Below, piece after piece: positions 2,737 through 53,396 of a DNA stretch of 64,000 nucleotides. The stretch's first letter is position 1; each line of letters starts with the position of its first letter. The notes beneath the pieces were generated by a model, which saw nothing but the letters and a program-made list of their open reading frames with translations, was not told the DNA's origin and made no database searches. The position numbers and the translations under genes were made by a program. Source of the DNA: Acidimicrobiia bacterium (GTDB lineage: Bacteria; Actinomycetota; Acidimicrobiia; Spongiisociales; UBA11373); NCBI GenBank assembly GCA_030584185.1, contig CP129495.1, positions 1,469,469 to 1,533,468 of the forward strand. The letters run 5' to 3'.

Positions 2737-3015
2737 CTAGTCCGAAGTGACCATCGGCCGGATGGCACTTCAGGATCCGGGGCGAAGGGTCGATCACATC
2801 AGAGCCACATGGACACGATCCACTCCCACTCGACATCGATGCAGAGGGGACGCTCACAGGGCCCCGGCTCCCACCGGGATCAAGCCCAGAGCAGTTCCTG
2901 GACCTGATTTTCGATCTTCGATCGTGCCTTTCCGTCACGGGCCCTCCGGGGCCCGTGACTCGTTTCCGCCCCCATTTGCCCTGAAGGTGGCGTCCGGGGG
3001 CGCCGATGGATCGAA

Positions 3016-3654
3016 ATGCAGCGGACCTGGCATCATCATGGAAGGCATCTCACCGGGCTCGGTGTCGCCGGCGCCATCACCTGGTGGGCGTTCGGGCTGC
3101 AGCGCCCGGTGCCGTTCCTCGACTGGTTCGACCTGGCGGTTCACGAGGCAGGGCACATGCTGGCCATGCCCCTTCCCAGGATCGCCATGTTCATGGCGGG
3201 GTCCTTCCTCCAGGTCGCCCTGCCGCTGGCGTTCGCCTGGTACTTCGGTGTGGCGCGTCGCGACCGGCTCGCCGGTGGGTTCTGCCTCGCCTGGGCGGGA
3301 ACCTCGGCGTGGGACGTCTCGGTGTACGCCGGCGACGCCGTAACCATGCGCCTCCCACTGGTCGGGGGCGGGGAGCACGACTGGGCGTACATCCTCGGCC
3401 ACTTCGACGCCCTGCACCTCACCGACCGTGTCGCCGCAGGCATCAGATGGGGCGGCCTGGCGATCTCCATGCTGGGCCTGGCGGTGATCCTCTGGAGCTG
3501 GTTACGGGAGGTTCGGCAGGCCGAGGCCGGGTCCCGGGTCCCGGACCGGAGCCAGCCTTTCGACTCAGGCGTCGAGGATCCGTGGCTGGCGGCGGCGAGC
3601 CTGCCCTTCCATCACGATCGGAGCCGGACTCAGTCGGGTTCTTCGGTGGGCTGA
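3016..3654 (+). CDS. Hypothetical integral membrane protein with an HExxH (HEAGH) motif, possibly a membrane zinc metalloprotease-like protein
   Basis: It is a 212-aa ORF with several hydrophobic segments and a DLAVHEAGHMLAM motif (HExGH, as in M50-type membrane metalloproteases). I see no other recognisable domain. Confidence 0.45.
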   Translation: MQRTWHHHGRHLTGLGVAGAITWWAFGLQRPVPFLDWFDLAVHEAGHMLAMPLPRIAMFMAGSFLQVALPLAFAWYFGVARRDRLAGGFCLAWAGTSAWDVSVYAGDAVTMRLPLVGGGEHDWAYILGHFDALHLTDRVAAGIRWGGLAISMLGLAVILWSWLREVRQAEAGSRVPDRSQPFDSGVEDPWLAAASLPFHHDRSRTQSGSSVG

Positions 3655-3857
3655 GGCGCCGGCCCGGCGTCGTCGGATGGTGGCTCCGGGGATGCCTTTC
3701 GCCCTCCGAGCAGGATCGCCAGGCCGACGGCCACCAGAGCGACCGGCCACAGCCGCTCGATGCGGATCGTCCACACATCGAGTGCGTCGAGCAGGAAGGC
3801 GGTGCCGATCACGATGAAGAGCAGGCCGCTGATCAGCGCATCCAGGTGCCGCTTCAT
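3630..3857 (-). CDS. Small membrane protein (75 aa), last gene of the PspC/LiaF-like module
   Basis: It has two hydrophobic helices and its start overlaps the stop of the upstream LiaF-like gene by 4 nt, which suggests translational coupling. Confidence 0.4.
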   Translation of the reverse strand: MKRHLDALISGLLFIVIGTAFLLDALDVWTIRIERLWPVALVAVGLAILLGGRKASPEPPSDDAGPAPQPTEEPD

Positions 3858-4453
3858 CCGGTTCGCACCTCCACCTTGCCGATCACTATGCGGGCGTCGA
3901 TCTTGAACTCCGGATTCGGGGGCGTTTCGACGACCTCGGGGGAGAATCCCGCCGAGGAGCGCCCGAGCACTAGGACGTCACCGATGCCGGCGGTGCCGCG
4001 CACCTCGACCACCGCCCCCTCGGGCACGACGACGACCAATTCCCCCATCACCAGGGACACCTCGATCACCTCGGGGAACTCGGTGGTCCCGGTGAGGTCG
4101 ATCACCATCTTGCCCACTCCCCAGCGGTACTCGGTGGCCGCTTCGGTCGGAGCCTCGTTTCGCTCCCCGATCCCTCCGGCAAGAGGCACCTCGGCGATCA
4201 CCTCGATGGCCGCCGAGAGCAACACCAAAATCGTGAGCACCACTCCAAAGCTGATCAGGCCGCCGTGGCGGCCGCTGGAAGATCCGAGCACCAGTGCCAA
4301 CCCCACGAGGATGAGGGCTGCCGGGAGGATCACCCCCCAGGAGACGTCGACGTCGGTGTACGCCTCGACCAGCCACATGCCGCCGATGGCCACCAGGAGC
4401 ACACCGGTGACGATCCGGCCCATGCGGCGATCGGTGTTGCCCGGGTGGGTCAT
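3854..4453 (-). CDS. LiaF-like / DUF2154-type protein: N-terminal TM helices followed by a beta-rich C-terminal domain
   Basis: The ORF runs 3854..4537 on the minus strand. I chose the internal start MTHPGNTDRR at 4453, which forms an ATGA overlap with the PspC-domain gene stop. The first ~90 aa are hydrophobic and the C-terminal repetitive V/E-rich domain is typical of proteins found downstream of PspC or LiaI. Confidence 0.55.
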   Translation of the reverse strand: MTHPGNTDRRMGRIVTGVLLVAIGGMWLVEAYTDVDVSWGVILPAALILVGLALVLGSSSGRHGGLISFGVVLTILVLLSAAIEVIAEVPLAGGIGERNEAPTEAATEYRWGVGKMVIDLTGTTEFPEVIEVSLVMGELVVVVPEGAVVEVRGTAGIGDVLVLGRSSAGFSPEVVETPPNPEFKIDARIVIGKVEVRTG

Positions 4454-4830
4454 CGGCGCATCCCCGTGGTGAGCAGGGCGGCGCCGACGAAGATGAGGAT
4501 CGCCGGTCCGATCAGCCTGCGCAGCGGTGCGACCCATTCCAGCATCGCCATCACCCCGACGGCCACCAGCACCGCCCCGATCACCAGGCGTGGCGTGGTC
4601 AGCCCGGCCGGGCCAGTCGAAGGTCCGGCTTCGTGGCCCTGGGGCTCCTCGGGGATGGCGATCCAGGCGATCACGTAGGCGAGCACGCCGACTCCGGTGA
4701 AGGCGAGGGCGACGAACGCGATGCGGATCAGCACGGGGTCGATGGTCAGGTACTCGCCTAGCCCGCCGGCGACACCGCCGAGCATGCGGTCCTCGGTGCT
4801 TCGGTAGACGCGCCGCAGGTCGGCTGCCAT
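4450..4830 (-). CDS. PspC-domain envelope stress protein
   Basis: The sequence LRRVYRSTEDRMLGGVAGGLGEYLTIDPVLIRIAFVALAF..GVLAYVIAWIAIPEE is a canonical PspC domain, and it is followed by a further TM segment. Confidence 0.8.
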   Translation of the reverse strand: MAADLRRVYRSTEDRMLGGVAGGLGEYLTIDPVLIRIAFVALAFTGVGVLAYVIAWIAIPEEPQGHEAGPSTGPAGLTTPRLVIGAVLVAVGVMAMLEWVAPLRRLIGPAILIFVGAALLTTGMRR

Positions 4831-4869
4831 GTCACCAAGAATAGCGTCGGTGGCCGGACGCTTCCTGGA

Positions 4870-5697
4870 GTGCGGTTCGATGGCGCCGGGCGCCTAGCTT
4901 GGTGTGTCATGGCAGCAAAGATCCGCTCCGGGAACTCGAGGGGATTCGATCCCACCCTCCCTTCGAACCGTTTCGTGCTCGGTGGCTCGGTGGTGGCCGG
5001 GGCGGCCGGAGGGTTCGCCGCCCTCGTCGCCGGGGAGCGTCTCGCCGAGGCGGTCGGGTGGGGTGTGGCCTCGGGAGGCGGGTTCTTCATCGCCTGGGCA
5101 CTCGCCCGCGAGCTGCACCCGGACCGGCCTGGGGTGGCCGCGGTGGCCGCCCTGCTCGGTCCCGTCTTTCTGCTGTTGGATCGCCCCAAGCTTCTGTCCT
5201 CCGGGGTCGTGCTGCTGGTCGCTCGCCTCGTCGCCGGCACAACCGGACGGCGGTTCCAATGGGTGGATGCCCTGGTCCTGCTGGTCCTGGCCGGGCTCTC
5301 GATCGGCACCCCCGTCGGGACGGCGGTCCTGGCGGTTGCAGCAGCGGCGACGGGTGCCACCTGGTTCGGGCCGAGTCGAGGAGGCCCGGTGGCGACCACG
5401 ACGATCGCCCTTGGGCTTCTTGCGGCCTGGTCGGCAGCGGCCGTGGAGGGCGGCCTTGTCTGGGGTCTCGAGGCGATCGATGGGGGAGTTGCGCTCTTCG
5501 GGCTGGCGGCCATCGCCGGGCCGGTGAAGGTCGTCACCGGCACCGACCGCGAGGGAGGCGTCATCCACCCCGGCCGGGTCCGGGCGGCGCGGGTGTTCGC
5601 GGCCGGGACCGTCGCTGCATCCGCGGCGCTCGGCGGCGTCGGTGTGCTGGGGCCGGTGGCCGCCGCCCTGATCGGCACCGCCCTCCGGCCTCGCTGA
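4870..5697 (+). CDS. Hypothetical polytopic membrane protein (Ala/Gly/Leu-rich)
   Basis: It is a 275-aa ORF with at least six hydrophobic stretches and no recognisable motif. The start could be the internal MAAKIR at 4909. Confidence 0.45.
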   Translation: MRFDGAGRLAWCVMAAKIRSGNSRGFDPTLPSNRFVLGGSVVAGAAGGFAALVAGERLAEAVGWGVASGGGFFIAWALARELHPDRPGVAAVAALLGPVFLLLDRPKLLSSGVVLLVARLVAGTTGRRFQWVDALVLLVLAGLSIGTPVGTAVLAVAAAATGATWFGPSRGGPVATTTIALGLLAAWSAAAVEGGLVWGLEAIDGGVALFGLAAIAGPVKVVTGTDREGGVIHPGRVRAARVFAAGTVAASAALGGVGVLGPVAAALIGTALRPR

Positions 5698-5706
5698 ATC
5701 GGCGGA

Positions 5707-6693
5707 TCAGCGGCGGGCGATCCGCTCCCAGTCGCGCAGGGCGAAACGGTCGGTCATCCCCGACACGTAATCGATGGCGGCGGCGGCCGCCCCGGCGTCC
5801 TGGTGGCGGTAGGTGTCGGGGACCTCGTCGGGACGCGCCGAGTAGTGGTCCACCAGGTCGCGGATGACGTCGATGGCGTGACGCCGCTGCTCGTCGGCCT
5901 CAGGGCGCAGGTACACCCGATCGAACATGAAGTCGCGCAGCAGGGTCATCGCCTCCAGGGCCTCGGGGTGCATGGTGACCGTTCCCGCCTCCACCGACGC
6001 CCCCACCACCGCCTCGATCATCACCGCGATCCAGGTCTCCGGCGGCCCAAACGCAGCCACCGCCTCCGCCGGCAGGTCGGAGTAGTCGAGCACCCCGACG
6101 CGCACCGCGTCGTGCACGTCGTGGGTGAGGTAGGCGATGCGGTCGGCGTACCGGCACACCATGCCCTCCTCGGTCTCCGGAGGGGGGTCGATCTTCCATG
6201 AGTGCGCTCGAATGCCGTCGAGGGTCTCGACCGTGAGATTGCACGGCTCCAGGACCTCGAACACCCGAACGCTCTGGGCGGCGTGATGCCACTCCCCGGC
6301 GACGTATGGGGTGAGTGCTTCTTCTCCGATGTGTCCGAAGGGCGAGTGCCCGACGTCGTGTCCCAGGCATATCGCCTCGGTGAGCGGCTCGTTCAGCCCG
6401 AGGTAGGCGGCGATGGAACGACCGATCTGGGTGACCTGCAGGGTGTGGGTGAGGCGGGTGACGAAGTGGTCACCGTCGGGGTTGATGAACACCTGGGTCT
6501 TGTGCTTGAGGCGACGGAACGCCTTGGTGTGCAGGATGCGGTCGCGGTCCCTCTCGAAGGCGGTGCGGTGCCGGTCCGGCTCCTCGGGCAGCCGTCGCCC
6601 GCCGCCCTGCGCCGATCGCGCGGCCCCCGGGGCGAGATGCTCCTGCTCCCACTGCTCGGCGATCTGGCGGGTCCGCCGGATCAGGCGGCTCAA
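5707..6693 (-). CDS. dgt: dGTP triphosphohydrolase-like HD-domain phosphohydrolase (short form)
   Basis: This is the C-terminal third of the 1067-aa artefact ORF 5707..8910. It contains RTAFERDRDRILHTKAFRRLKHKTQVF and the HD motif (ICLGHDVGHSPFGH), which match the dGTPase/Dgt family. No in-frame ATG is present, so I chose TTG at 6693, which overlaps the phnE stop (TTGA). Confidence 0.8.
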   Translation of the reverse strand: MSRLIRRTRQIAEQWEQEHLAPGAARSAQGGGRRLPEEPDRHRTAFERDRDRILHTKAFRRLKHKTQVFINPDGDHFVTRLTHTLQVTQIGRSIAAYLGLNEPLTEAICLGHDVGHSPFGHIGEEALTPYVAGEWHHAAQSVRVFEVLEPCNLTVETLDGIRAHSWKIDPPPETEEGMVCRYADRIAYLTHDVHDAVRVGVLDYSDLPAEAVAAFGPPETWIAVMIEAVVGASVEAGTVTMHPEALEAMTLLRDFMFDRVYLRPEADEQRRHAIDVIRDLVDHYSARPDEVPDTYRHQDAGAAAAAIDYVSGMTDRFALRDWERIARR

Positions 6694-20961: not shown

Positions 20962-21197
20962 TGGAGATCGTCGGCGAGCCCGGACCACTGCTGGCTGCGG
21001 CGATCGTCGCCGCCGTGGTGCGCCTCGAGGAGGAGGCGCGAATGCAAAGCTCCCAACCCCTGGAGAGGCCGATCCAGGCGCGATGGGTGATGGCAGGGAT
21101 ACCGCGACCGGTGCAGTCTCCGTTCGTCGCCCGGCCGGCACCGGTGCTCGGAGTGCGCGATCTGAATGCGACGGGGGCGGCGAACCCCGACGGCTAG
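20961..21197 (+). CDS. Small protein (78 aa), possibly an acyl-CoA carboxylase epsilon-subunit-like protein
   Basis: Its ATG overlaps the epimerase stop. The N-terminus EPGPLLAAAIVAAVVRLEEEA resembles ACC_epsilon subunits, and the context (epimerase) fits the propionyl-CoA pathway. This is a weak call. Confidence 0.3.
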   Translation: MEIVGEPGPLLAAAIVAAVVRLEEEARMQSSQPLERPIQARWVMAGIPRPVQSPFVARPAPVLGVRDLNATGAANPDG

Positions 21198-22465
21198 TTG
21201 ACCTCGGCGGCGGCGCGTTCGTCGGCTGCGGGGAGCGTGAAGCAGAACCGGGCACCGATGGGAAACCCGGGCTCGTACCAGACCTCGCCACCCATCGCCT
21301 CCACGAGGTGCTTCACCACGGACAGTCCCAGCCCGAACCCCGAGGCCAGGCGGGTGTGACCGCTCGGAACCTGCTCGAACCGCCCGAAGATGCGCTCTCG
21401 GTACTCGATCGGGACGCCGGGACCGTCGTCGGCGACCACGACCAGCCACTGGTCTTCGCGCCGTTCGGCCTCGACGGACACCCGATCGCCACCGTACTTG
21501 CGAGCGTTCTCCAGGAGGTTTCTCAGCACCTGTTCGACACGGTTGGGATCGGCGTTCACCCAGACGCTGCCTCCGATCGACACGGTCGCCGATCGTTCGC
21601 CTCCCGCCGGGAAGAGCAGGTCGGCGATCCGGTAGGCGGCAGGCTGCAGCGGGAAGGCGGTGATGTCGACCAGGAGCCGTCCCGCCTCCAGACGTGGGAT
21701 GGCGAGCACGTCGTCCACCAGCTTGCTGAGGTGCTCGGACTCGGTGACGATGATCTGTAGGAACTCCTCCGCTTCGGCCGGGTCCAGGTCCCGCCAGGTG
21801 TCGCTGAGCGTCATGGCGAAACCTGCGATGTTGGTGAGTGGGGTGCGCAGTTCGTGGGTGACCATCGACACGAACTCGTTCTTCATGTCCGAGGCGCGGC
21901 GTTCCGCAGCCACAGCATCCTCCTGGCGGTGTCGTGCTGCCGCCACCGCCGCCGCCGCCGCCGACAGGGAGAGCATCATGCCGGCCAGGAAGATGAGGAC
22001 AGCACCCCAGATCTCGGGCCCGGCCTCGGAAGCGGCGGGACCCGCCTCGGGGATGTCGAAGAGTTGACGGGCCAACAGGGCTGTGACGAGCGTGCCGATT
22101 GAGGCAAGCAGGGAACGCACTCCGGCGAAGGTCACCGATGCGGTGATCAGATAGGCGGCGGCGGCGACGAGCACCACGTGCAGGCGGTCGTCGAGCCCTA
22201 CGGCGAACGCGATCACGGCGGCATCGATGACCAGTGATTCGGTGATCGACCCGGCGCGACGCCCTCTGAGAAGGGCGTGGAGTAGCGAGACCGAGGCGGC
22301 TGCCGCTGCAATCCAGGCGTGGGGGGCACCCGAGGTCTGGGCGAAGACGGCGACGAGCGCCAGCAGCCCCGCCCCGACGATGCGAATCCGCTGGAACAGC
22401 GGGCGCAGCGAGGAGTAGTCGACGGCAGCGCCGAGACGCCTGAACGGATGTTCCCGTGTGGCCAC
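21194..22465 (-). CDS. Membrane-integral sensor histidine kinase (orphan)
   Basis: It has about five N-terminal TM helices, an H-box (MVTHELRTPLTNI), and N/G boxes (LLENARKYGG, DDGPGVP, GFGLGLSVVKHLV). There is no adjacent DNA-binding response regulator. Confidence 0.85.
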   Translation of the reverse strand: MATREHPFRRLGAAVDYSSLRPLFQRIRIVGAGLLALVAVFAQTSGAPHAWIAAAAASVSLLHALLRGRRAGSITESLVIDAAVIAFAVGLDDRLHVVLVAAAAYLITASVTFAGVRSLLASIGTLVTALLARQLFDIPEAGPAASEAGPEIWGAVLIFLAGMMLSLSAAAAAVAAARHRQEDAVAAERRASDMKNEFVSMVTHELRTPLTNIAGFAMTLSDTWRDLDPAEAEEFLQIIVTESEHLSKLVDDVLAIPRLEAGRLLVDITAFPLQPAAYRIADLLFPAGGERSATVSIGGSVWVNADPNRVEQVLRNLLENARKYGGDRVSVEAERREDQWLVVVADDGPGVPIEYRERIFGRFEQVPSGHTRLASGFGLGLSVVKHLVEAMGGEVWYEPGFPIGARFCFTLPAADERAAAEVN

Positions 22466-22519: not shown

Positions 22520-23437
22520 TTACTCCTGGGGAGTAGTGCGCCTGAGGAGGTCGCGTAGTGCCGGTGCGGCCCGAGTGAGGAAGAGGCGGCGGAAGTCGGT
22601 CTGGGGCGAGACGTCCAGCCTGGCGAACCGTTGTAGGTCGCCTTCTGAACGTACGAAGGCGACACCCGGATCTTCGGTGAGCCAGGTCTGGTAGAAGGAC
22701 CGGTTCTTGTGGTAGCTCACCGGAAGCAGTGCTGTCGGTTTTCCCATCATCGCCGCCACGACTGCTCCGTGAAGCCGGTCGCTGACGACACTTCGAAAAG
22801 GAGCGATCCGAGCCACAACACCTTCGAGGTCCTCTTCGAGGGTGACGTCGTGTTGGACTCCATTCGGAGTCAATGCGTGGTCGACGCGTTCCAGACAGGA
22901 CCCCGGCGTGCGCAGAATCCAGAGACTCTGCTCTCCGCCATGGGCTCTCGGGATCAGATCGGTGGCGAAGAATGCAGCATCCGGCACCAGTGCCGTCCGC
23001 ACTCCCGCTCTGGCCAGCAGGCGCTCCGAGACGCGGTCGCGCGCCCACACTGTCACCCTCCCATCCACCAGTGCCGGCTCCGGGGCTCTTGCCGACTGCG
23101 GCATCACCAGGAATGCTCGTGCCGCTGCGGCGTGCCCTATGACCGCCTGCCGGAGGCGTTCGCTCTCCGCGTAAATGCCGATGTTCCCGCCGCCACTGAA
23201 CACCACCAGGCCAGGGAAGCGCTCCAGGGCCTCGCCCACCGCCTCCAGGTCGCCAGCCACCGCCGCCGTCTCGAGGGTGCCGTCTGAGTTCCAGATGTCG
23301 AGTCCGGCGGCTCTGAGGAATCGCAGGCAGGCGGTCCGGATGAGATCGTCACCCGTGTTGCCTCCGGACGCCCCCAGCAGGATGGCATCGTGAAGCCTGG
23401 TCGGGACCGGTCCTCTCGCAAGGGCGGGAGTGGTCAC
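22520..23437 (-). CDS. Polysaccharide pyruvyl transferase family protein (CsaB/WcaK-like)
   Basis: The motifs AILLGASGGNTGDDLI and DRLHGAVVAAMMGKPT are typical of PF04230. I chose GTG at 23437, which forms a GTGA overlap with the upstream gene stop. Confidence 0.7.
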   Translation of the reverse strand: MTTPALARGPVPTRLHDAILLGASGGNTGDDLIRTACLRFLRAAGLDIWNSDGTLETAAVAGDLEAVGEALERFPGLVVFSGGGNIGIYAESERLRQAVIGHAAAARAFLVMPQSARAPEPALVDGRVTVWARDRVSERLLARAGVRTALVPDAAFFATDLIPRAHGGEQSLWILRTPGSCLERVDHALTPNGVQHDVTLEEDLEGVVARIAPFRSVVSDRLHGAVVAAMMGKPTALLPVSYHKNRSFYQTWLTEDPGVAFVRSEGDLQRFARLDVSPQTDFRRLFLTRAAPALRDLLRRTTPQE

Positions 23438-24711
23438 CGTCGCCGCCGGCGGAACCTGGCCCCCAGCCTTCCTGGGAGTCGGCGCAGAGTCTGCCCGGTG
23501 AGCCAGCGGGCGTGGTGCGCCCACATGGTGTCGAAGATTCGTTCGCGGTTGGGAAGTAGGAACTCGTGCCCGTCCTCGGCTTCAAGCAAGCCATTCAGGT
23601 CCACCGTGAGGCGGGACTTCGCCGAGGAAGACTCGTACGCGTCGACGCATCGTCTCATCGCCGGGATCAGTTCGTGTTCGATCGAACGCTCGGCAGCGAA
23701 GGCCAGAGCGTCGCGCCAGTGATCTACCGTGACTTCGTTCAGTTCGGTTCTCAAGACTTCGTCGACACCGATCGGGGACTGCAGCGTCGGGCATCTGTCC
23801 AGTGCCCCGACGAGTGCCAGCGCGATCCTGGTTCGGATGCACTTCTCGCATCGATTGCAGTTGAACTCACCGTTCGGGTTTCTCCAACACACCCGCAGGT
23901 GATCGAGGGCAACCTGGTGGTCGCCGAGTGCCGTCGCGCGGTCGATCCGACGTGATCCCCATCCGATCGGTTCGATGGCGACCCGATCTGACCCGAACAA
24001 TGGTGATGTCAGGGGATGTCCACCCCACGGGTACAGGTTCCGGTAGCTTCGGTCGGCGGTCGCCAACAACAATGTGATGCCGTCGCTGGCGACGTGGGCC
24101 ACCGCTGCCGGCGCCATCAGGTGGTACTGAGTCGCCCAGTCTGCCCAGGGCTCCGAGAACTGGCGTACGTTGGTGTCTGCCAACGCCAGCGGAAGGGAGA
24201 GTTCGGCGGCTGCCGAGGATAGATGCCCGATCACCGAGTCGATCAGTGCCTGATCCTGCTCGAGCATGTCCATGGCGCGGATGTAGAGGAGGCCGGTAAG
24301 GCGCGGCGCCTCGGTGATCGCCGTGTGAAAAGAGTCAACTCCGCCGCTGAAGAGGGCAAAGGTCGACTCCGGTCTATCGGCTGCGGGGGGCAGGTGCTCG
24401 GCCACGATCTCGACCGGTCTGAGGGTCGGGAACCAGCATGTATAGATCTGTTGTAGGCGATGGATGTTCTCGACCAGAGACGGTGACACGGGAGTCTCGG
24501 AGACCAGGCGGCTTGCCGTGGCCATCGCCGGCACCAGCGAAGCGAGGAGAAAACCGTCCCCGGGAGATTCCCGGCTGGCAAGCTCCCCGGGAACCTGAAA
24601 CCAGAGCCTGCGTGGCTCACCTGCGATATCGATGGGGGCTTCGAAGCGAACTTGATCGTCGCCGTCGAATCGGCTTGGTACACGACAGACGACTTCCTCC
24701 ACGGCGTTCAT
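23434..24711 (-). CDS. QueC-like PP-loop ATP pyrophosphatase with a C-terminal Zn-ribbon, plus N- and C-terminal extensions
   Basis: It has the internal start MNAVEEVV, with an ATGA overlap with the PHP gene stop. The PP-loop is ALFSGGVDSF. The Cys cluster CWRNPNGEFNCNRCEKC (C-x9-C-x2-C-x2-C) matches the QueC zinc site. At ~425 aa it is much longer than QueC (~220 aa). Confidence 0.65.
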   Translation of the reverse strand: MNAVEEVVCRVPSRFDGDDQVRFEAPIDIAGEPRRLWFQVPGELASRESPGDGFLLASLVPAMATASRLVSETPVSPSLVENIHRLQQIYTCWFPTLRPVEIVAEHLPPAADRPESTFALFSGGVDSFHTAITEAPRLTGLLYIRAMDMLEQDQALIDSVIGHLSSAAAELSLPLALADTNVRQFSEPWADWATQYHLMAPAAVAHVASDGITLLLATADRSYRNLYPWGGHPLTSPLFGSDRVAIEPIGWGSRRIDRATALGDHQVALDHLRVCWRNPNGEFNCNRCEKCIRTRIALALVGALDRCPTLQSPIGVDEVLRTELNEVTVDHWRDALAFAAERSIEHELIPAMRRCVDAYESSSAKSRLTVDLNGLLEAEDGHEFLLPNRERIFDTMWAHHARWLTGQTLRRLPGRLGARFRRRRR

Positions 24712-25547
24712 TCTGGCCGCCGCTCCTTCAAGCGGTCGAGCACCTCGTCGGGAACCACCAGGTCGCCTCGCCCCACGCCTACCTCCAGACCCGGCTTGCG
24801 CCGGCCGCCGTGGTGGTCGCTGCCCCCGCTGGGCACCAGGCCGTGTCGCTCGGCCATGGCCGCCATGGCGACGCGCTGGGCCGGGGGGTACTCCCCGTAC
24901 CAGCACTCCACCCCTGCGATTCCGGCCTCGGCGAAGGCGGCGAACGCCGATCGGAACCCGTCGGCGTCGTCCGCCACGGTGTGGGGGTGGGCGGCGACGG
25001 CGACTCCCCCGGACTCGACGATCAGGTCGACCGCCCGTCGCAGCGACCAGCGCTCCCGGTCGCGGTAGGCGGGGGCGCCGTCACCCAGCAGTGCCTCGAA
25101 CACCTCTGCGTTGGTGGAGAAGAGGCCCTTCTCGACGAGGACGTCGGCCATGTGGGGGCGTCCGATCACCCCCTTTTCCGCCCGATCTGCAACCTCGTCC
25201 ACCGTGATCGGGTAACCCATGGCGGCCAGGGCTTCGATCATGGCCACGTTGCGCATGCTGCGGAAGCGACGCACTTCGTCGAGGTGCTCGTCCAGTGCCG
25301 AGCCGGGGCCCACCCAGAGCCCGAGGAGGTGCATCTTGCGATCGCCCCACTTCACCGACAGCTCGATGCCCGGCACCAGCTCGAGCCTTCCTTCGGCGGC
25401 GGCCTCGGCCTCGGGGATCCCATCGAACAGGTCGTGATCGGTGAGTGCCATGGCACTCAGGCCCACCGTTACTGCGGCGTCCACCAGCCGTGCCGGTGGG
25501 TGGGTTCCGTCCGAGTAGAGCGAGTGGACGTGGAGGTCTATCGGCAC
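24708..25547 (-). CDS. PHP-domain phosphoesterase (TrpH/YciV-like)
   Basis: MPIDLHVHSLYSDGT...ALTDHD...HPH match the PHP metal-binding motifs. It is 279 aa. Confidence 0.85.
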   Translation of the reverse strand: MPIDLHVHSLYSDGTHPPARLVDAAVTVGLSAMALTDHDLFDGIPEAEAAAEGRLELVPGIELSVKWGDRKMHLLGLWVGPGSALDEHLDEVRRFRSMRNVAMIEALAAMGYPITVDEVADRAEKGVIGRPHMADVLVEKGLFSTNAEVFEALLGDGAPAYRDRERWSLRRAVDLIVESGGVAVAAHPHTVADDADGFRSAFAAFAEAGIAGVECWYGEYPPAQRVAMAAMAERHGLVPSGGSDHHGGRRKPGLEVGVGRGDLVVPDEVLDRLKERRPE

Positions 25548-25563: not shown

Positions 25564-26226
25564 TCAACGATCCACCGTCACCCGCTCCAGGTACAGCGTC
25601 TGCATCGGATATGACGGTTCGGCGGAGCCGGGTCGGAACCCGAGCGGTAGCCGGGCGATCTCGTCGATGACCTCGAAGCCGCCGACCACGCTGCCGAAAA
25701 CCGAGTAGGCGGCGGGGAGGTCGGTGTCGCCGAGGACGATGAAGAACTGGCTTCCGGAAGTTCCCGGCCCGGCGTTGGCCATCGCCACCACTCCGGCACC
25801 GTAGACGAAGCCCTCTTCGGGCAGCTCGTCGGGCAGCCGGTAGCCGGGGTCGCCCATCCCTGATGCTGTGGGATCCCCGGCCTGGATGACGAAGCCGGGC
25901 AGGATGCGGTGGGCGGCGGTTCCGTCGAAGTAGCCCTGCTCGGCGAGGAACACGAACGAGTTGACCGTCGCCGGCGCCAGGTCGGAGTCGAGCAGCAGCT
26001 CGATCTCACCGCAGGAGGTCTCCAGGGTCACCGCCACGGTGCCGGTGAGGCCCAGCGCTTCGGGTGCGGTGAAGGACATCTGGCGTGCCGGTTCCGGTCT
26101 CTCGGCCCCGCAGGCGGTGGGCTGGTCGCGAAACGCCCGATACTCGGGGGTGTCGACGGTGGGGGCGTCGTCGCCGCAGGCGACGATCGCCAAGGCGAAT
26201 GCGATGAGGGCGGCTCTGGTCTTCAC
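25564..26226 (-). CDS. Cyclophilin-type peptidyl-prolyl cis-trans isomerase, lipoprotein
   Basis: It has a lipobox ([10 protein letters not shown]) and the cyclophilin core ([15 protein letters not shown]...[15 protein letters not shown]). Confidence 0.9.
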
Positions 26227-26310
26227 GCGCCCGATGGTATCCCGTCACCGTGTCAGGGAGATCACGGTGCGGGCCAAGGGCTTGTCGCCCCCACTCCTAC
26301 ACTCGGCGCC

Positions 26311-27534
26311 ATGGCTCTCGTCGTGCAGAAGTACGGCGGCACCTCCGTGGGCGACGCCGATCGGATACGCGCCGTCGCCAAGCGGGTGGCGGCGCGCAGG
26401 CAGGCGGGCGACGACGTGGTCGTGATCGTCTCGGCGATGGGCCATACCACCGACGAACTGGTACGGCTCTCCGGCGAGGTGAGTCCCGCCCATCACCCAC
26501 GGGAGATGGACATGCTGCTCACCGCCGGCGAACGGATCTCGATGGCGTTGCTCGCGATGGCGATCAGGGATCACGGGGTGGAGGCGATGAGCCTCACCGG
26601 GTCACAGGCCGGGATCCTCACCGACACCTCGCACGGCCACGCCAAGATTCGTGACATCAAGGCCTTTCGCGTCGAAGAGGGTCTGGCGGCGGGGAAGGTC
26701 GTCATCGTCGCCGGCTTCCAGGGCGTCTCGCCCGACACCAAGGAGATCACCACCCTGGGTCGAGGAGGCTCCGACGCCACCGCCGTGGCCATGGCGGCTG
26801 CCCTCGGCGCCGACTGCTGTGAGATCTACACCGATGTCGACGGCGTGTTCACAGCCGATCCCCGTCTCGTCCCGGAGGCCCGCAAGCTGGACGAGATCTC
26901 CTATGAGGAGATGCTGGAGCTCGCCGGGGCGGGAGCGCGGGTCCTGATGCCGAGGTCCGTAGAGTTCGGCAAGCGGTTTGGAGTCCCCATCCACGTGCGG
27001 TCGTCGTTCCATGACGGTCCGGGGACCTGGGTCAAGGAGGAGGCGATGGAGCAGGCGGTGGTGAACGGCGTTGCCCACGACGTCTCCGAGGCCAAGATCA
27101 CGGTTCGCGGGGTACCCGACACCCCCGGGGTGGCGGCAGCCGTGTTCGGGCCGCTGGCCGAGGGTGGCGTCTCGGTGGACATGATCGTGCAGAACGTCTC
27201 CAGTGGCGGAAACGCCGACATCTCGTTCACCATCCCCAGGGAGCTGATTCCGCTGGCGGTCCCCATCGCCGAGTCCACCGCCGCCGCGCTTGGGGCCGCC
27301 GGCGTCGACGTGGACGCCACCATCGGCCGGGTCTCGATCGTGGGAAGCGGGATGCGTGCCTATCCGGCGGTCGCCGCCAAGATGTTCTCCGTGCTCGCCG
27401 CCGCCGGGATCAACATCGCCATGATCTCCACCTCACCCATCAGGATCTCCTGCGTGATCGACGAGGCGGCGGTGGAAGACGCCGTTCGCTTGTTGCACGC
27501 CGCCTTCGAACCCCCCGTCGGGACCCCCGGGTGA
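26311..27534 (+). CDS. ask: Aspartokinase
   Basis: It has the internal start [13 protein letters not shown] in ORF 25909..27534, and a kinase domain followed by two ACT domains. Confidence 0.95.
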
Positions 27535-30014: not shown

Positions 30015-30380
30015 TCATCGGAGCACCTGGTCGATGGCGTGACGGAGGTCGGCGGCCCCGAAAGGCTTGCGAATCCAGCCCTCGGCGCCAGATCGCCCTG
30101 CCAGGAAGGCGTCGGCATCGCGATCGAGCAGAAGGATCACCGGCGGCGGCTGCTGGTCCTTGCCGGCAAAGGCGTCACGGATCGCCCTGGTCACGGCCAT
30201 CCCTCCCATCGAGCCGACCTGCATGTCGACGAGGACGGCGTCCGGAGAGGTGTCTTCGACCGTTGCCGCAGCCGAGCGAGGATCAGCCTGAGCGGCGATC
30301 CGGAAGCGCCCGTCGCCGAGGGCGGCCGCGACGTCGGTGACCACCCACGGCTCGTCGGCAACCACCAGGATGTCGGTCAT
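30015..30380 (-). CDS. Single-domain response regulator (receiver only, CheY-like)
   Basis: MTDILVVADEP...DAVLVDMQVGSMGG...KP is a receiver fold with its phospho-acceptor Asp, about 121 aa, and no output domain. Confidence 0.8.
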   Translation of the reverse strand: MTDILVVADEPWVVTDVAAALGDGRFRIAAQADPRSAAATVEDTSPDAVLVDMQVGSMGGMAVTRAIRDAFAGKDQQPPPVILLLDRDADAFLAGRSGAEGWIRKPFGAADLRHAIDQVLR

Positions 30381-30438
30381 GCCGGCAGGGTAGTGGCCGC
30401 CGCATCCGTGCCGACACCCCCTTCCTAACATCTCGGAG

Positions 30439-31746: not shown

Positions 31747-32052
31747 GTGGGCGACGCGATCGCTGCCGCCGATCGGTCCTGGCAGGGCAAGGGTCTGTGT
31801 CGGGGCAACCACGCCTACCTGTTCTTTCCTCCGAGTACCGTCGAGCGCAAAGAGGACCGTGAGAGGCGGGAGCACAAGGCCAAGGCGATCTGTGGCGTGT
31901 GTCCGGTGACTTCCGAGTGCATGGAGTTCGCACTGGAGATTCGTGAGCCCTACGGCATCTGGGGCGGGCTCACGGAGACTGAGCGGCGCCAGGTGGCGAG
32001 TCGGCGGGCGGCGGCGGTAGGAGTCGGCGCAGATCTCCGCTACGGCGGGTGA
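31747..32052 (+). CDS. whiB: WhiB-family (Wbl) iron-sulfur transcription factor
   Basis: It has four Cys (C-x22-C-x2-C-x5-C), with CRG...ELFFP-like upstream and GIWGG downstream. AGGGAGG lies 8 nt before the GTG at 31747. The track ORF starts at 31708. Confidence 0.8.
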   Translation: MGDAIAAADRSWQGKGLCRGNHAYLFFPPSTVERKEDRERREHKAKAICGVCPVTSECMEFALEIREPYGIWGGLTETERRQVASRRAAAVGVGADLRYGG

Positions 32053-33778
32053 CCCCGGCCCGGTCCATCCACTCCAACAACGGGATGGCGTGCTTGCGGC
32101 TGATCTCGAGGGCGTCGCGGAAGTCGGCCACCGAGAACTCCTCGGGAAGGGCCTTCAGCGACTCGGTCAAGCCGGCGATGGTCTCGGGCAGGTAGAGAAG
32201 GTCCTCGGACACCGCCACCAGGTCACCCCTTCTCAGCAGGGCGTGGATCAGTTCCTCGTCGAGACCCAATTCGCCCCGGCGCGGCGGGGCGGCTCCCGCC
32301 GCCTCCAGGGTCTTTCTCACCGGCTGCCATGCGGCATCTGAGGACTCGTCGAGCCCGCCTCCGAACCCGACGAGGTGCACCACGGCACCGTTTCGGGCCA
32401 GCCGATCGGACCAGGTGACCACGGCCTCGAGGAGCGGAGCCGGGAGCCGCAGCGAGGTGGCCAGCGTGGGCAGCGGCATTCCCGGACGCAGCGGATTCTC
32501 CCGGTGGTACCGATCGAGACGGTCGACGGCGGCCGATTCGATCCGTCGCGCCTCATCGCCGGTGGTCGCCAGGTCGCCTGCCATCAGGGCGGGATCCGGA
32601 GTTCCACCCCCTGAGTCGGCGGCCAGCTCGCCGAGGGTTGCGCTCCGGCGGGTCGCCAGGAGGGCGTCCGCCCTTTCGTCGGGGGTGGCGGCGGTGCGTA
32701 GCCTCGGTAGCGACTCGATCACCTGACGCCGACGAGGGGGCGGTCGCGGGTCGAGCACCACGCCACCGGCGACGACAGCACGGCGCCCCACCTCGCGCAA
32801 CACGACGTGTTGTCCAGCCGCAACCGGTACCGGGGTGGCGAGGCGGAGTAGTGCTGCGCCCGGTGGGTCGTCGACCAGGGAGAGGCGAGCCGGATGCGAT
32901 CCACTGCCGATGTGGACGTGGAAGGACCCCCTGTCTCGAAGCGGTCCCGACGGACTGCGTACCAGCCGCAGGTCGACCACGATCCGATCCGACGAACGCC
33001 ACCGTCCCGGGAGGCCGAGCATGGCGCCGCGCGCCACCTCATCCCTTCCGACCCCGGCGAGGTTCACCGCCGCTCGGTTGCCGGGGGTGATCGAGGGCAT
33101 CGGCCGATCGTGGTTGTGCAGGCCGCGGACCCGCACCTCGCGTTCGTCCGGGTACAGCATCAGCACGTCGTCCACCGAGATGGTTCCCCCGACGAGGGTG
33201 CCGGTGACGACGGTTCCGGCGCCGCCGATGGTGAACGCCCGGTCCACCCACAGACGGGGTCGGTGGAGGTCGGGGGCGGGCGCCACCAGGCCGGCGAGGG
33301 CGGTGCGCAGAGCCTCCAGGCCTTCGCCGCGGGGAGCCGCCACCGGGAGGATGGCCACTCCCTCCAGGGAGGTTCCCGCCAGCTGCTCGGCCACTTCGAT
33401 CTCGGCCAACTCCAGGGTCTCGGAATCCACCAGGTCTGCTCGGGTGAGCGCCACCACGCCGCGGTCGACACCGATGAGGTCGAGGATCGCCAGGTGCTCC
33501 TCTGACTGGGGCATCCACCCCTCGTCGGCAGCCACCACGAACAGGGCGGCGTCCACACCTTCGACCCCGGCCAGCATGTTCTTGATGAAGCGCTCGTGAC
33601 CGGGGACGTCGATGAACCCGGTCTCGAGACCGCCTAGATGCGTCCAGGCAAAGCCGAGGTCGATGGTCATGCCCCGGCGGCGCTCCTCGGCCCAGCGGTC
33701 CGGATTCCTCCCGGTGAGGGCCTCGACCAGCGTCGACTTGCCGTGGTCCACGTGGCCCGCGGTGACGACTACCGGCAT
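31970..33778 (-). CDS. selB: Selenocysteine-specific elongation factor SelB
   Basis: It has a GTPase N-terminus (AGHVDHGKSTL, DVPGHERF), EF-Tu-like domains and a long C-terminal winged-helix extension. It is 602 aa. Confidence 0.9.
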   Translation of the reverse strand: MPVVVTAGHVDHGKSTLVEALTGRNPDRWAEERRRGMTIDLGFAWTHLGGLETGFIDVPGHERFIKNMLAGVEGVDAALFVVAADEGWMPQSEEHLAILDLIGVDRGVVALTRADLVDSETLELAEIEVAEQLAGTSLEGVAILPVAAPRGEGLEALRTALAGLVAPAPDLHRPRLWVDRAFTIGGAGTVVTGTLVGGTISVDDVLMLYPDEREVRVRGLHNHDRPMPSITPGNRAAVNLAGVGRDEVARGAMLGLPGRWRSSDRIVVDLRLVRSPSGPLRDRGSFHVHIGSGSHPARLSLVDDPPGAALLRLATPVPVAAGQHVVLREVGRRAVVAGGVVLDPRPPPRRRQVIESLPRLRTAATPDERADALLATRRSATLGELAADSGGGTPDPALMAGDLATTGDEARRIESAAVDRLDRYHRENPLRPGMPLPTLATSLRLPAPLLEAVVTWSDRLARNGAVVHLVGFGGGLDESSDAAWQPVRKTLEAAGAAPPRRGELGLDEELIHALLRRGDLVAVSEDLLYLPETIAGLTESLKALPEEFSVADFRDALEISRKHAIPLLEWMDRAGVTRRSGDLRRLLPPPPADSPPGAAQSP

Positions 33779-35094
33779 GCGGCGGCCAGGGCTCCGGCTA
33801 CGACGGCGTCATGTCGCGCGTCCACCGCCCGCAGGTCGATGAGCAGGCGGTCCCGATCGAGGCGTCCGACCACGGGAGGATCGGAGGCGAGCAGGCGGGC
33901 CCGCACCTCGGCGGCGTCGCCGGGTACGACGATCACCGGTCCCGGGATCCCCCGCCCCGGGGCCGAACCCGCACCGGGAAGCGACCGATCATCGGTGACC
34001 TCGCCGACTCCGGCAGTCGCGACCACGGCCCGGCATCGCCGGTCGAGCTCGTCGGCATGAATGGTCGCCATCGCCCAGAACGGGACCTCGCCTCCACGAC
34101 CGGCGGCGTAAAGGCTCAGCGTCGCCGCCAGCGATGCCAGCGCCTCCTTGGAGATGCGCACGGCGCGCGCCATCGGATGGCCGCTGATCCTTCGCACCAG
34201 GGCAGCCTTCCCGGCGATGATTCCGGCCTGCGGACCGCCGAGGAGCTTGTCGCCCGAGAACAACACCAGGTCGGCTCCCGCCTCGAGCGTCTGCCTGGCT
34301 GCAGGCTCGCCCTCCAGCCAGGCCGGCGGCGGGCCCTCCAGCCAGGGGAGGCGCTCGTCGAGAAGGCCGGACCCGATGTCGGCGACGAAGGGAACCTCCC
34401 GTGACCGGGCGAGGTCGGCCAGTGCCCCGTAGGACACCTCCTCGGTGAACCCCTCTACCCGGAAGTTGGACGGGTGCACCTTCAGGATCAGGGAGGCGTC
34501 GTCGAGGACCCGGGCGTAGTCGCGCAGCCGGGTGCGGTTGGTGGTGCCCACCTCGATGCTGCGGGCACCGGCGGTGGCGATGATCTCGGGTAGGCGGAAC
34601 GACCCGCCGATCTCGATCTGCTCCCCGCGAGACGACACGACGTTCCTGCCCCCGGCGAGAGCGGCCACGGTGAGCAGGAGCGCACCGGCGTTGTTGCCCA
34701 CGGCGAGTGCCGCCTCGCCCCCGGTGAGGGAGCGCAGCAGTGCCTCCACGTACTCGCCGCGACCCCCCCGCTCTCCCGTGTCGAGGTCCATCTCCAGGGC
34801 CGAGTACCCGCCGGCCGCCGCCGCGGCGGCAGCAGCCGCATCGGGATGAACCGGCGCCCGACCCAGATTGGTGTGGAGCAGCACGCCGGTGGCGTTGATC
34901 ACCGGTTCCGGCGCCGTGCGCCGTAGTCGCGCCATTTCGATTCGGGCGCGGTCCTCCGGATCGCCTTCGCCGTCGACCCTCCACTCGGCTATCGCCTGGC
35001 GCGCCACCTCGATCACGAGCCGTCGGGGAAGCGTGCCGTCGTCGATGACGCGAGCCAGGGCGTCCACCGAGGGTGGATGGGAGGACATGGGCAC
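33769..35094 (-). CDS. selA: L-seryl-tRNA(Sec) selenium transferase SelA
   Basis: It has the PLP-dependent SelA motifs (INATGVLLHTNLGRAP, FSGDKLLGGPQAG) and overlaps the selB start by 10 nt. Confidence 0.9.
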   Translation of the reverse strand: MPMSSHPPSVDALARVIDDGTLPRRLVIEVARQAIAEWRVDGEGDPEDRARIEMARLRRTAPEPVINATGVLLHTNLGRAPVHPDAAAAAAAAAGGYSALEMDLDTGERGGRGEYVEALLRSLTGGEAALAVGNNAGALLLTVAALAGGRNVVSSRGEQIEIGGSFRLPEIIATAGARSIEVGTTNRTRLRDYARVLDDASLILKVHPSNFRVEGFTEEVSYGALADLARSREVPFVADIGSGLLDERLPWLEGPPPAWLEGEPAARQTLEAGADLVLFSGDKLLGGPQAGIIAGKAALVRRISGHPMARAVRISKEALASLAATLSLYAAGRGGEVPFWAMATIHADELDRRCRAVVATAGVGEVTDDRSLPGAGSAPGRGIPGPVIVVPGDAAEVRARLLASDPPVVGRLDRDRLLIDLRAVDARHDAVVAGALAAACR

Positions 35095-44662: not shown

Positions 44663-46008
44663 GTCGACCGCAGCGTCTCCAGCCGATCTGCCAGCAGGCC
44701 CAACTGCATCTCCACCGAGGCGAACGAACCACCTCCCGGGGATCGCCGCTCGGCAACCGACGATGCCGGGTCGAGGACTAGGACATCCTCCGGTGCGAAA
44801 GCGGGGTGGGCCGCCCTCAGGTCGGCTTCGGTGATGCCCGAGGGGTGACTCGCCACCATCTCTCCCACCACCTGATGAGCCTCCCGGAAGGCGACCCCCC
44901 GCTCCACGAGGACCTCGGCCAGGTCGAGGGCGCCCACCCATGGGCCCGGGGCAGGCGGGTGGAACCGGGCGGCGTCGAGCATGGCGGCGAGCACCCGCAG
45001 CGCCCCGGCCAGGTCGTCGTCCACCACGAAGAGGTGCTCCTTGTCCTGCTGCAGGTCGCGGTCGTAGGCCAGTGGGAGGCCCTTGACCACCGCCAGCACC
45101 CCGGTCAGGTGCCCGATGGCGGAGCCGGCCTTGCCCCGGGTCAGCTCGGCGGGGTCGGGGTTCTTCTTGTGGGGGAGGGCCGACGAGCCGGTGGTGTGCC
45201 GGTCGGCGAAGGTGACCCATCCGAACTCGGTGGTCGCCCACAGCGTCATCTCCTCGGCGAGCCGCGACAGGTCGACGAGGGCCTGGGTACAGCAGAACAG
45301 GTACTCGGTCACGGCGTCGCGGGAGGCGACGGCGTCCAGGGAGTTCTCGAACACTGCCGGAAGGCCGAGGAGTCGGGCTGCCACCGCGGGCTCCAGAGGG
45401 AGGCGGCTTCCCCCCCCGGCGCCGGCACCGAGCGGGGAGACCTCGATCCGGGCGAGGGACGAGACGAACCGATCGGCGTCGCGCAGCAGTGCCCAGGCGT
45501 GGGCAAGGAGGTGGTGGGCGAGGGGTACCGCCTGCGCCTGCTGCATGTGGGTGTAGAACGGCACCACCGTCGCTCCGGCGTCTTCGGCCCGTCGGGCCAG
45601 GACCCCGATGAGGCCGGCCAGGTCGGCGATCCGGTCGCGGGCCGCCCGACGCAGGTAGAGCCGGAGGTCGAGGGCGATCTGATCGTTGCGCGAGCGGCCG
45701 GTGTGCAGCTTCCCGGCCACGGGGCCGATCAGCTCTCCCAGACGCCGCTCCACTCCCGAGTGCACGTCCTCGTCGCCATCCGACCACGGGAAGGTTCCTG
45801 CCGCCGCCTCGGCGGCGATCAGTTCCAGCCCCGCGGTGATGGTGGCCACTTCCGCCGCATCGAGGATCCCGGCAGAGCCGAGGGCGGCGACGTGGGCGAC
45901 GGAGCCCTCAACATCCGCCTCCAGCAGCCTGCGGTCGGCTTGCGACGTCATGAACCCCCACGCCCCCGGGTCGGGCCCCTCGGAGAAGCGGCCTCCCCAG
46001 AGGGTCAC
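44659..46008 (-). CDS. argH: Argininosuccinate lyase
   Basis: It has [10 protein letters not shown], the fumarate-lyase signature [12 protein letters not shown], a GTG start at 46008 and a GTGA overlap with the argG stop. Confidence 0.95.
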
Positions 46009-47210: not shown

Positions 47211-47310
47211 CAGGGCACCTCTCCGCCGACGAGTACCAAGGATCGCGCAACGGGACGAAGGGTGCGAAACCGCCGGATCTACGCTTCCCGGGGTCGAGGC
47301 CGGAGGGGGC

Positions 47311-53242: not shown

Positions 53243-53307
53243 GGTCGTTCCTCCGGCGGGGCATGGTACGGACAAGGCGGCCCGGTGAGAAGAGGCCGCG
53301 GCGCCCG

Positions 53308-53362: not shown

Positions 53363-53396
53363 GGTGCGACCGTTGAGATGTCGATTGGAGGAACCC

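Follow-up and report, generated by a model that had tools for sequence, protein, structure and literature searches.

Within the window (the whole 64-kb stretch of DNA analyzed here), three minus-strand genes are followed by a gene for a membrane histidine kinase (Table 1). As a preliminary description of this DNA had proposed, the three open reading frames are joined by start/stop overlaps, ATGA between the first and second (24708-24711) and GTGA where the stop of the second meets the GTG start of the third (23434-23437). They encode a PHP phosphoesterase, a QueC-like PP-loop ATPase for which we use the name PPL, and a polysaccharide pyruvyl transferase. The ATG of PPL at 24711 is backed by homologues whose alignments start at residue 1, giving a protein of 425 residues, in line with the roughly 425 given beforehand. 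The NCBI call begins at M63 and is too short; an exact look-up of the protein of that length returned no record. For the transferase, the NCBI annotation holds the same 305-aa protein. A scan for promoters and terminators yielded nothing informative inside the unit on the minus strand.

Table 1. Position of the genes and sequence features discussed in the text, in window coordinates
Feature	Position	Strand	Remarks
PHP phosphoesterase gene	24708..25547	-	PF02811 (E 1.4e-10), TrpH/YciV-type; host gene flanking the module
QueC-like PP-loop ATPase PPL, 425 aa	23434..24711	-	PPL is the name of the family described here
PF04230 polysaccharide pyruvyl transferase, 305 aa	22520..23437	-	Pfam match
Host membrane histidine kinase	21194..22465	-	HisKA + HATPase_c
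Single-domain response regulator	30015..30383	-	PF00072 (E 4.3e-13); candidate kinase partner
Inserted segment, 2158 bp	22555..24712		blastn against L094
PPL N-terminal domain, residues 1-113	24373..24711	-	family-wide conservation
PP-loop motif SGGVDS, PPL residues 122-127	24331..24348	-	read from sequence
Cys4 motif C275-x9-C285-x2-C288-x2-C291 of PPL, residues 275-291	23839..23889	-	read from sequence

The first gene and the kinase gene belong to the host. The PHP protein was correctly recognized beforehand as a TrpH-like phosphoesterase. It resembles the TrpH/YciV group, which includes the pAp phosphatase Cv1693 and RNase AM, both in its Pfam match and in its similarity to the solved members 3e0f (E 8e-34), 7ug9 (E 1e-30) and 2yb1, but its score of 179.7 lies below the NCBIfam equivalog cut-off of 400. 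The histidine kinase, also anticipated, carries about five to six hydrophobic segments and begins 54 nt past the transferase stop. It is the ancestral downstream neighbor of PHP, and the synteny of the two genes is kept in related loci (L087-L094). This kinase had been regarded as lacking a partner regulator. No response regulator adjoins it, but a conserved single-domain receiver is encoded 7.5 kb away; the receiver gene also occurs in L087, L092 and L093, and in relatives it lies beside a CNNM gene.

Two histories may explain how PPL and the transferase came to lie between PHP and the kinase: the pair was gained in this genome, or it was lost from its relatives. In five relatives, whose PHP proteins are 53-94% identical to that of the window, the gene order is PPIase, PHP, histidine kinase, with neither PPL nor the transferase between the last two. 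In the closest of them, L094 (PHP 94% identical in protein), blastn aligns positions 1047-3835 with window 27500-24713 at 88.6% identity and positions 3871-6424 with window 22554-20001 at 86.5% identity; in the window, the insert takes the place of 35 bp of PHP-kinase intergenic DNA. It holds the PPL gene and nearly all of the transferase gene, the last ~7-11 codons and TAA stop of which are host-derived DNA according to the junction sequences. At the opposite junction, the 3' end of PHP was remodelled in its last codons and stop, so that a terminal RRPAT became RRPE. The GC3 values of the two inserted genes are 0.735 and 0.746, compared with 0.866±0.035 for host genes, about 3.5 SD under them, while PHP itself has a host-like 0.861. 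Loss in the relatives was rejected on grounds of parsimony, given five pair-less relatives, and of the atypical GC3. Taken together, the pair-less relatives, the boundaries in L094, the low GC3 and the absence of PHP from 80 loci carrying PPL indicate that a 2.16-kb two-gene unit was recently inserted here by horizontal transfer.

The insertion also accounts for the apparent operon, since the ATGA overlap between PHP and PPL was created by the insertion junction. It is not necessary to regard the window pair as a frameshifted version of a fused gene of the kind described below, because stand-alone PPL genes end at the same point and show the same 4-nt overlap with the transferase. No terminator-like site was found on the minus strand between PHP and the kinase; therefore, the genes are probably co-transcribed here, and the insert most likely relies on PHP/kinase transcription and on the PHP-proximal GGAG. 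Records of the identical transferase protein exist for 83 contigs, indicating that the insertion persists in nature.

The PPL protein comprises an N-terminal α/β domain, a PP-loop Rossmann core, a Cys4 knuckle and a helical tail. Both the PP-loop and the C-x9-C-x2-C-x2-C motif noticed earlier are present, but the lengths given for its extensions need correction: about 115 rather than ~170 residues precede the PP-loop domain, and about 125 rather than ~90 follow the Cys4 motif. Among 46 family members, to which all motif counts refer, SGGVDS occurs in 43. Its residues G124 and D126 are invariant. In the AF2 model the loop sits after strand 117-120, and PPL shows two hallmarks of the PP-loop ATP pyrophosphatase superfamily, the adenine-nucleotide α-hydrolase fold and an SGGxDS loop that opens a Rossmann-like domain. 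The N-terminal domain is marked by an invariant W93 and a “PAM” motif across the family; it has no confident structural relative. Neither PPL nor the transferase has predicted membrane segments.

Profile searches, which had been suggested as a check, matched PHP and the transferase; for PPL, no Pfam or NCBIfam model scored above threshold, and neither its sequence nor the 46-member profile found a match in the PDB even at E≤10. There is a weak likeness to Pfam DUF6395 (PF19932) that takes in the Cys4 knuckle together with the helices after it (PPL residues 270-362, E 0.015, below the gathering score), shared by 8 of the 46 members, all under the gathering score. However, it covers only the C-terminal third of PPL, and DUF6395 is itself uncharacterized; a literature search returned no paper on it. 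In a structural search the top matches were QueC and Cap9. Yet in sequence PPL and QueC (PF06508; PDB 3BL5) are only 11% identical, and the Pfam QueC model gives the window protein no match at E≤0.1, with weak matches in 7 of the 46 members (best E 0.004). The Cys4 motif of PPL resembles that of QueC, with a first spacer longer by one residue, C(x)9CxxCxxC versus the canonical C(x)8CxxCxxC (C-x9 in 34/46 members, C-x8 in 8/46), and PPL adds the N-terminal domain and the helical tail. The term “QueC-like” thus holds for the fold and not for the sequence family, and PPL constitutes an undescribed family. As for other known families, PPL resembles the amidotransferases WbpG, PseA and LfnA (TIGR03573; PDB 8wex) in being a PP-loop enzyme of polysaccharide clusters, but neither the TIGR03573 NCBIfam model nor a close fold match was obtained with it. 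By this check against known families, PPL is not a bona fide QueC, nor does it belong to the N-acetyl-sugar amidotransferases.

The transferase, in turn, is a conventional member of its family, as had been proposed. Its PF04230 match reaches 55.0 bits, where 25.3 is the cut-off (E 1.5e-14), and spans positions 1-278 of the 280 in the profile, that is, its full length. Among WbbZ, Pvg1p and CsaB, the characterized representatives considered, the first two are matched in the PDB (6x1l and 5ax7, respectively), and WbbZ is the closest solved relative. To our knowledge, no characterized pyruvyl transferase works with, or is fused to, a PP-loop enzyme. A literature search likewise retrieved no paper that pairs a pyruvyl transferase with a PP-loop enzyme or a 7-cyano-7-deazaguanine synthase.

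We turn to the distribution of PPL itself, for which neighborhood counts refer to 80 species loci carrying the gene. The family is large, with about 10,000 representatives, and spans many phyla without a Pfam or NCBIfam model of its own. A PF04230-like open reading frame lies within 8 kb of PPL in 35 of the 80 loci and directly beside it in 23, with the two genes in either order and across many phyla, from Planctomycetota to CPR lineages. Some members are fusions: P0002, 42% identical to the window PPL, joins PPL to a PF04230 domain, residues 452-733 of this fused protein being 51% identical to the window transferase, and further fusions with PF04230 are P0006, P0083, P0242, P0246 and P0253. 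Upstream of each of the closest transferase homologues lies a PPL homologue, and the two genes overlap by 4 nt. Seen from either partner, then, the module recurs by adjacency or fusion in distant lineages. The remaining 45 loci have no PF04230 gene within 8 kb, indicating that PPL can also work without the transferase. Two further members are fused to a GT2 glycosyltransferase (P0084, P0245), and PPL usually lies amid glycosyltransferases (GT2, GT4) and ABC exporters, with ABC-2 permeases, Wzx and an ATP-grasp “sugar-transfer” protein among its neighbors. AsnB-type amidotransferases adjoin it in three loci, which could mean that another enzyme performs the amidation. One member is encoded within a tad pilus locus. 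No glycan cluster occurs in the 64-kb window; there is just a WecA-like gene, at a distance of 30 kb.

The fusions, the direct adjacency and the 4-nt overlaps upstream of transferase homologues argue that PPL and the transferase form a functional unit. The leading account, which we advance tentatively as plausible rather than established, is that the inserted pair is a cytoplasmic glycan-tailoring unit that amidates a carboxylate, PHP and the kinase being unrelated to it. The idea of a glycan-modification cassette had been raised before; it fits the two-gene core, with its fusions, adjacency and polysaccharide-cluster context, but not PHP. The substrate, nucleophile and step order given next are inferred. 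With phosphoenolpyruvate as donor, the transferase would attach a pyruvate ketal to a sugar of a glycan that is lipid-linked or still growing, and in ABC-transporter-dependent pathways the ketal could serve as a terminal cap; this is suggested by the relationship of the transferase to WbbZ, a proven PEP-dependent terminal pyruvyltransferase that caps the glycan terminus (PMC10629545). PPL, with ATP bound at its SGGVDS loop, would then adenylate a carboxylate on this glycan, the likeliest being that of the newly added pyruvyl group, and pass the activated group to ammonia or an amine to give an amide. Such chemistry is suggested by the nearly invariant PP-loop and by the best structural matches, since QueC and Cap9 are both ATP-dependent carboxylate-to-amide enzymes (PMC13329287). 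A more specific version is possible, though we lean against it: the pair may make a new glycan substituent in which the adenylated ketal carboxylate becomes a carboxamide, an N-substituted amide or, through a second QueC-like round, a nitrile, perhaps a charge-neutralized cap that governs chain length or export in the ABC-transporter-dependent pathways of many bacterial and some archaeal phyla. A literature search found no amidated pyruvate ketal (carboxyethylidene), and one combining QueC-like proteins with polysaccharides retrieved irrelevant phage papers only.

Other explanations were weighed against this amidation account. That PHP, PPL and the transferase form one three-enzyme pathway, in which PHP would strip an intermediate of a phosphate or nucleotide, is barely credible and in practice refuted. 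The ATGA overlap and the probable co-transcription speak for it, but the overlap is a product of the insertion junction, PHP has the GC3 of the host and the pair does not, and orthologues of PHP, one of them 94% identical in protein, stand beside PPIase and kinase genes with no sign of the pair. By tblastn, PHP and PPIase have no match in any of the 80 PPL loci and the kinase has two unrelated ones; the gene clusters of P0002, P0084 and L096-L098 have no PHP either. The syntenic trio envisaged at first therefore does not recur in the loci examined: PHP is beside PPL in 0/80 loci, and all examined loci of PHP orthologues lack the pair. It is unlikely, although worth considering, that PPL acts on a non-pyruvyl group, converting a uronic acid to a uronamide or an N-acetyl to an acetamidino group, while the transferase merely decorates the same polymer. 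The acetamidino conversion is that of WbpG/PseA-type enzymes, which, like LfnA, modify a sugar substituent with ATP and ammonia. We consider it improbable that the pair is inert passenger DNA, a recent arrival decaying in a genome without a target glycan. Its isolation amid housekeeping genes and the host-derived 3' end of the transferase would agree with this, but both open reading frames are intact and keep every family-invariant residue, the PF04230 match is full length and the transferase recurs unchanged on 83 contigs.

The two remaining possibilities concern the chemistry of PPL and are more remote. PPL could be a QueC paralogue for a 7-deazapurine or similar small molecule, acting in a nucleobase pathway or tagging protein N termini as do Cap9/QatC, but there is very little probability left for this. 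Its fold matches, its Cys4 motif, the weak Pfam QueC matches of seven members and the tad-locus member, for which a pilin target is conceivable, would all be compatible with such a role. Against it, the QueC substrate motifs YxQxHxxE, VPxRN and YPDC (PMC13329287) are each present in 0 of the 46 members, and the neighbor clusters of the 80 loci contain glycan genes rather than queD, queE, folE or tgt. A check for queD, queE and folE partners found none near the window pair either, the only FolE domain being an HPPK fusion 33 kb away, and the deazapurine alternative offered at the outset is not supported. Compared with Cap9/QatC of the protein-conjugating CBASS type IV and QatABCD systems, PPL falls outside PF06508, has different partner genes and lacks the surroundings of a defense system; a defense-system role was dropped because PADLOC gave no match for any of the three proteins. 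Very doubtful, too, is an Fe-S-dependent sulfur transfer of the LarE/TtuA/NcsA type yielding a thiocarboxylate or thio-sugar. The four cysteines of PPL could be ligands of an Fe-S cluster instead of zinc, but their spacing and position fit the QueC zinc knuckle and not the three-Cys Fe-S sites (PMC13329287), and the PPL neighbors include no sulfur-relay genes.

Capsules, O-antigens and cell-wall polymers commonly carry pyruvate ketals, decorations of immunological importance, and we know of no enzyme that processes these ketals further. The repeated fusion or coupling of PPL to pyruvyl transferases suggests that glycan tailoring includes a step not yet accounted for. The family would extend to carbohydrates a QueC scaffold that was lately shown to be reused for protein conjugation. 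The idea lends itself to direct testing, with natural fusions and several cultured carriers available; in three of these carriers, Aliagarivorans taiwanensis DSM 22990, Nocardia sp. 2TAF39 and Parafrankia colletiae, the two genes are adjacent. In addition, the locus offers a clean case in which a 2-kb gene pair entered exactly at a stop codon, where it mimics a translationally coupled operon with an unrelated gene and so calls for caution in operon-based function prediction.

The preliminary description had joined a PHP phosphoesterase, a QueC-like PP-loop protein (PPL) and a pyruvyl transferase into one operon beside an orphan histidine kinase. Its start/stop overlaps can be read off the sequence (ATGA at 24708-24711 and GTGA at 23434-23437), as can the PP-loop (SGGVDS, PPL residues 122-127) and the C-x9-C-x2-C-x2-C motif (residues 275-291) of the middle protein. 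The boundaries of the trio were drawn wrongly: PHP and the kinase both belong to the ordinary gene set of the host and adjoin each other in orthologous loci.

Gene layout around PPL (window coordinates)
Feature	Position	Strand	Remarks
Cyclophilin PPIase	25564-26226	minus	
PHP phosphoesterase	24708-25547	minus	PF02811
PPL	23434-24711	minus	425-aa ORF
Pyruvyl transferase	22520-23437	minus	PF04230, 305 aa
Membrane histidine kinase	21194-22465	minus	
Single-domain receiver	30015-30383		7.5 kb from kinase; kept in relatives

To compare gene orders, PHP orthologues (53-61% identity, plus one at 94%) were followed back to their contigs. Every contig traced has the order Asd–Ask–PPIase–PHP–kinase–small ORF–glyoxalase–thiolase, with the kinase directly after PHP. 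In nucleotide alignment, the closest relative at this locus (L094) is collinear with the window on both flanks of the pair, its positions 1047-3835 matching window 27500-24713 at 88.6% identity and 3871-6424 matching 22554-20001 at 86.5%; window 22555-24712 (2158 bp) thus stands in place of 35 intergenic base pairs. At the left end, the junction is within the final two PHP codons (…RRPAT* becoming …RRPE*) and produces the ATGA overlap, while the right junction lies about 7-11 codons ahead of the transferase stop, so that the TAA stop itself is host DNA. Third-position G+C is 0.746 in PPL and 0.735 in the transferase, against 0.861 in PHP, 0.833 in the kinase and 0.866±0.035 in 16 host genes; the window as a whole is an actinobacterial segment of about 69% G+C, and proteins identical to its own are on record from an Acidimicrobiia MAG. 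The window PHP has no tblastn match in any of 80 loci carrying PPL homologues. We consider it nearly certain that PPL and the transferase were inserted together as a unit and have no connection with PHP or the kinase, and the locus is a clear case of an insertion that looks like an operon.

The kinase does start 54 nt past the transferase stop, and roughly 5-6 hydrophobic segments were found in it; calling it an orphan was too strong, since the receiver 7.5 kb away is conserved in relatives. The NCBI call for the transferase is the same 305-aa protein as the window ORF. This exact protein (P0381) is on record for 83 contigs in public assemblies, indicating that the insertion-bearing lineage occurs widely across sequenced samples. 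In relatives (L087 2341-2703 and 8911-9162; L088 3275-3526), the syntenic block contains small “23S rRNA intervening sequence protein” genes (PF05635) that are missing from the window; the block is therefore a repeated site of small insertions.

PPL has no Pfam or NCBIfam assignment, its only family trace being a sub-threshold DUF6395 match at residues 270-362, and neither sequence nor profile searches matched it in the PDB. A confident AlphaFold2 model built from 46 homologues (pLDDT 93, pTM 0.86) places QueC and Cap9 as its nearest structural relatives, followed by TilS, LarE, ThiI and other PP-loop enzymes; in this predicted model, the fold is QueC-like. We checked 46 family members for the catalytic signature published for canonical QueC, namely, SGGxDS, the Cys4 motif, YxQxHxxE, VPxRN, and YPDC (PMC13329287). 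The family retains SGGxDS and a Cys4 motif longer by one residue, whereas YxQxHxxE, VPxRN, and YPDC are absent from all 46 members. PPL is therefore QueC-like in fold and probably also in its chemistry, yet it is not a true QueC. Its homologues align from residue 1, which makes the ATG at 24711 the likely start. The deposited protein (P0001, 363 aa) begins at M63, the stretch affected being window 24523-24711 (minus strand); this start is probably wrong and too short, given that alignment and a confidently folded N-terminal domain that requires residues 1-62.

PPL has a conserved partner in the pyruvyl transferase, in a setting of glycan genes. P0002 (740 aa), the homologue nearest to PPL, is one continuous polypeptide: its N-terminal part shares 42% identity with PPL, and its residues 452-733 share 51% with the window transferase. 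Five further PPL–PF04230 fusions (P0006, P0083, P0242, P0246, and P0253) and two PPL–GT2 fusions (P0084 and P0245) were found. Using an HMM made from neighboring transferases, we detected a PF04230-like ORF within 8 kb of PPL in 35 of 80 loci, 23 of them with the ORF immediately adjacent on either side; two-thirds are thus next door, compared with about one-eighth expected for random placement among ~16 flanking genes. The proteins most similar to the window transferase (54-56% identity) are each encoded after a 431-438-aa PPL homologue of 34-35% identity, whose gene overlaps theirs by 4 nt. Other recurrent neighbors are GT2 (26 loci), ABC exporters (24), GT4 (17), and ABC-2 permeases (8), along with Wzx flippases, “sugar-transfer” ATP-grasp proteins, AsnB-like amidotransferases, and acyltransferases. 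The P0002 cluster encodes GT2, GT4, epimerases, a UDP-GlcNAc 2-epimerase, and an ABC-2 transporter, and P0084 is preceded by an overlapping PF04230 gene and followed by a PIG-L deacetylase.

A second recurrent neighborhood, in Acidimicrobiia/Actinomycetota (L021, L027, and L055), has a PhyH-type dioxygenase gene downstream of PPL, together with a convergent DUF218 gene; these replace or accompany the transferase. An exception to the glycan context is the Microcella frigidaquae member (L084 10001-11122), which lies within a tad/Flp pilus locus, between the two TadB/C-like genes and the TadE-like ones, and has no pyruvyl transferase in its vicinity; its UniRef name, 7-cyano-7-deazaguanine synthase, is almost certainly a misannotation.

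Enzymes of the PF04230 family take enolpyruvate from PEP and form a ketal that has a free carboxylate, and PP-loop enzymes activate a carboxylate or carbonyl oxygen by adenylation. WbbZ, the closest solved relative of the window transferase, caps the O-antigen terminus by PEP-dependent ketal pyruvylation (PMC10629545), and QueC and Cap9 convert a carboxylate to an amide (PMC13329287). Neither PPL nor the transferase has predicted membrane segments. Together with the PPL–transferase order of the fusions and the translational coupling, this suggests a two-step cytoplasmic tailoring of a lipid-linked or growing glycan, in which the transferase would pyruvylate the glycan and PPL would then amidate the pyruvyl carboxylate at the expense of ATP. 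The fold and motifs, like the fusions and the gene context, are observed; every chemical step of this scheme is inferred.

A role of the pair in glycan biosynthesis is quite likely; that the pyruvyl carboxylate is the substrate of PPL is a tentative proposal, which we would sooner doubt than assert. The strongest rival, though less likely than not, is that PPL amidates a different group of that polymer. Sulfur transfer by PPL, protein or deazapurine chemistry, and a pair that is inert passenger DNA are each unlikely; against the deazapurine reading stand the three missing QueC motifs. With glycan tailoring as the preferred reading, the pair is a testable lead toward a missing glycan modification and introduces no new principle.

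A HMMER scan of 1.84 billion representatives gave 5,650 family members at E≤1e-30 and 10,318 at E≤1e-3, the looser count possibly holding strays because some of the 607 profile positions derive from fused domains. A pattern scan of species genomes confirmed at least 578 loci in Actinomycetota, Planctomycetota, Verrucomicrobiota, Acidobacteriota, Pseudomonadota, Chloroflexota, Gemmatimonadota, Cyanobacteriota, CPR lineages, and Bathyarchaeia. Many members are tandem or fused. What the pair represents is an extensive, unannotated PP-loop superfamily branch that has a domain architecture of its own and a conserved partner, probably for glycan tailoring; our literature search found no paper on it. 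Among P0241-P0255 and P0321, many proteins of 650-1430 aa contain two PPL-matching stretches (tandem duplications), and P0321 carries a fused β-lactamase-like domain of class A (PF13354).

The other window genes are housekeeping (NrtR/NadA/NadB, DnaX, RecR, thiolase, Ask/Asd, CorC, SelA/SelB, ArgG/ArgH, and two GlnA), and the sole glycan-related one is a WecA-like transferase 30 kb away. The only FolE-type domain, GTP cyclohydrolase I (PF01227, residues 273-449), shares an ORF with HPPK (PF01288, residues 90-217) at 57551-58906 (plus strand), which looks like a folate-pathway fusion unrelated to the pair. Two full-length, divergent glutamine synthetase genes, at 51914-53410 (minus) and 53364-54818 (plus), have longest ORFs whose 5' ends run ~47 nt into each other; their true starts probably lie further in. 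The ~190 residues ahead of the Pfam domain in argininosuccinate synthase (46005-47774, minus) and the ~135 in aspartokinase (25909-27534, plus) are probably ORF overextension rather than real N-terminal extensions, as aspartokinase orthologues have only 405-408 aa. Adjacent SelB and SelA genes (31970-35094, minus), which encode selenocysteine incorporation machinery, point to selenoprotein synthesis in this Acidimicrobiia lineage.
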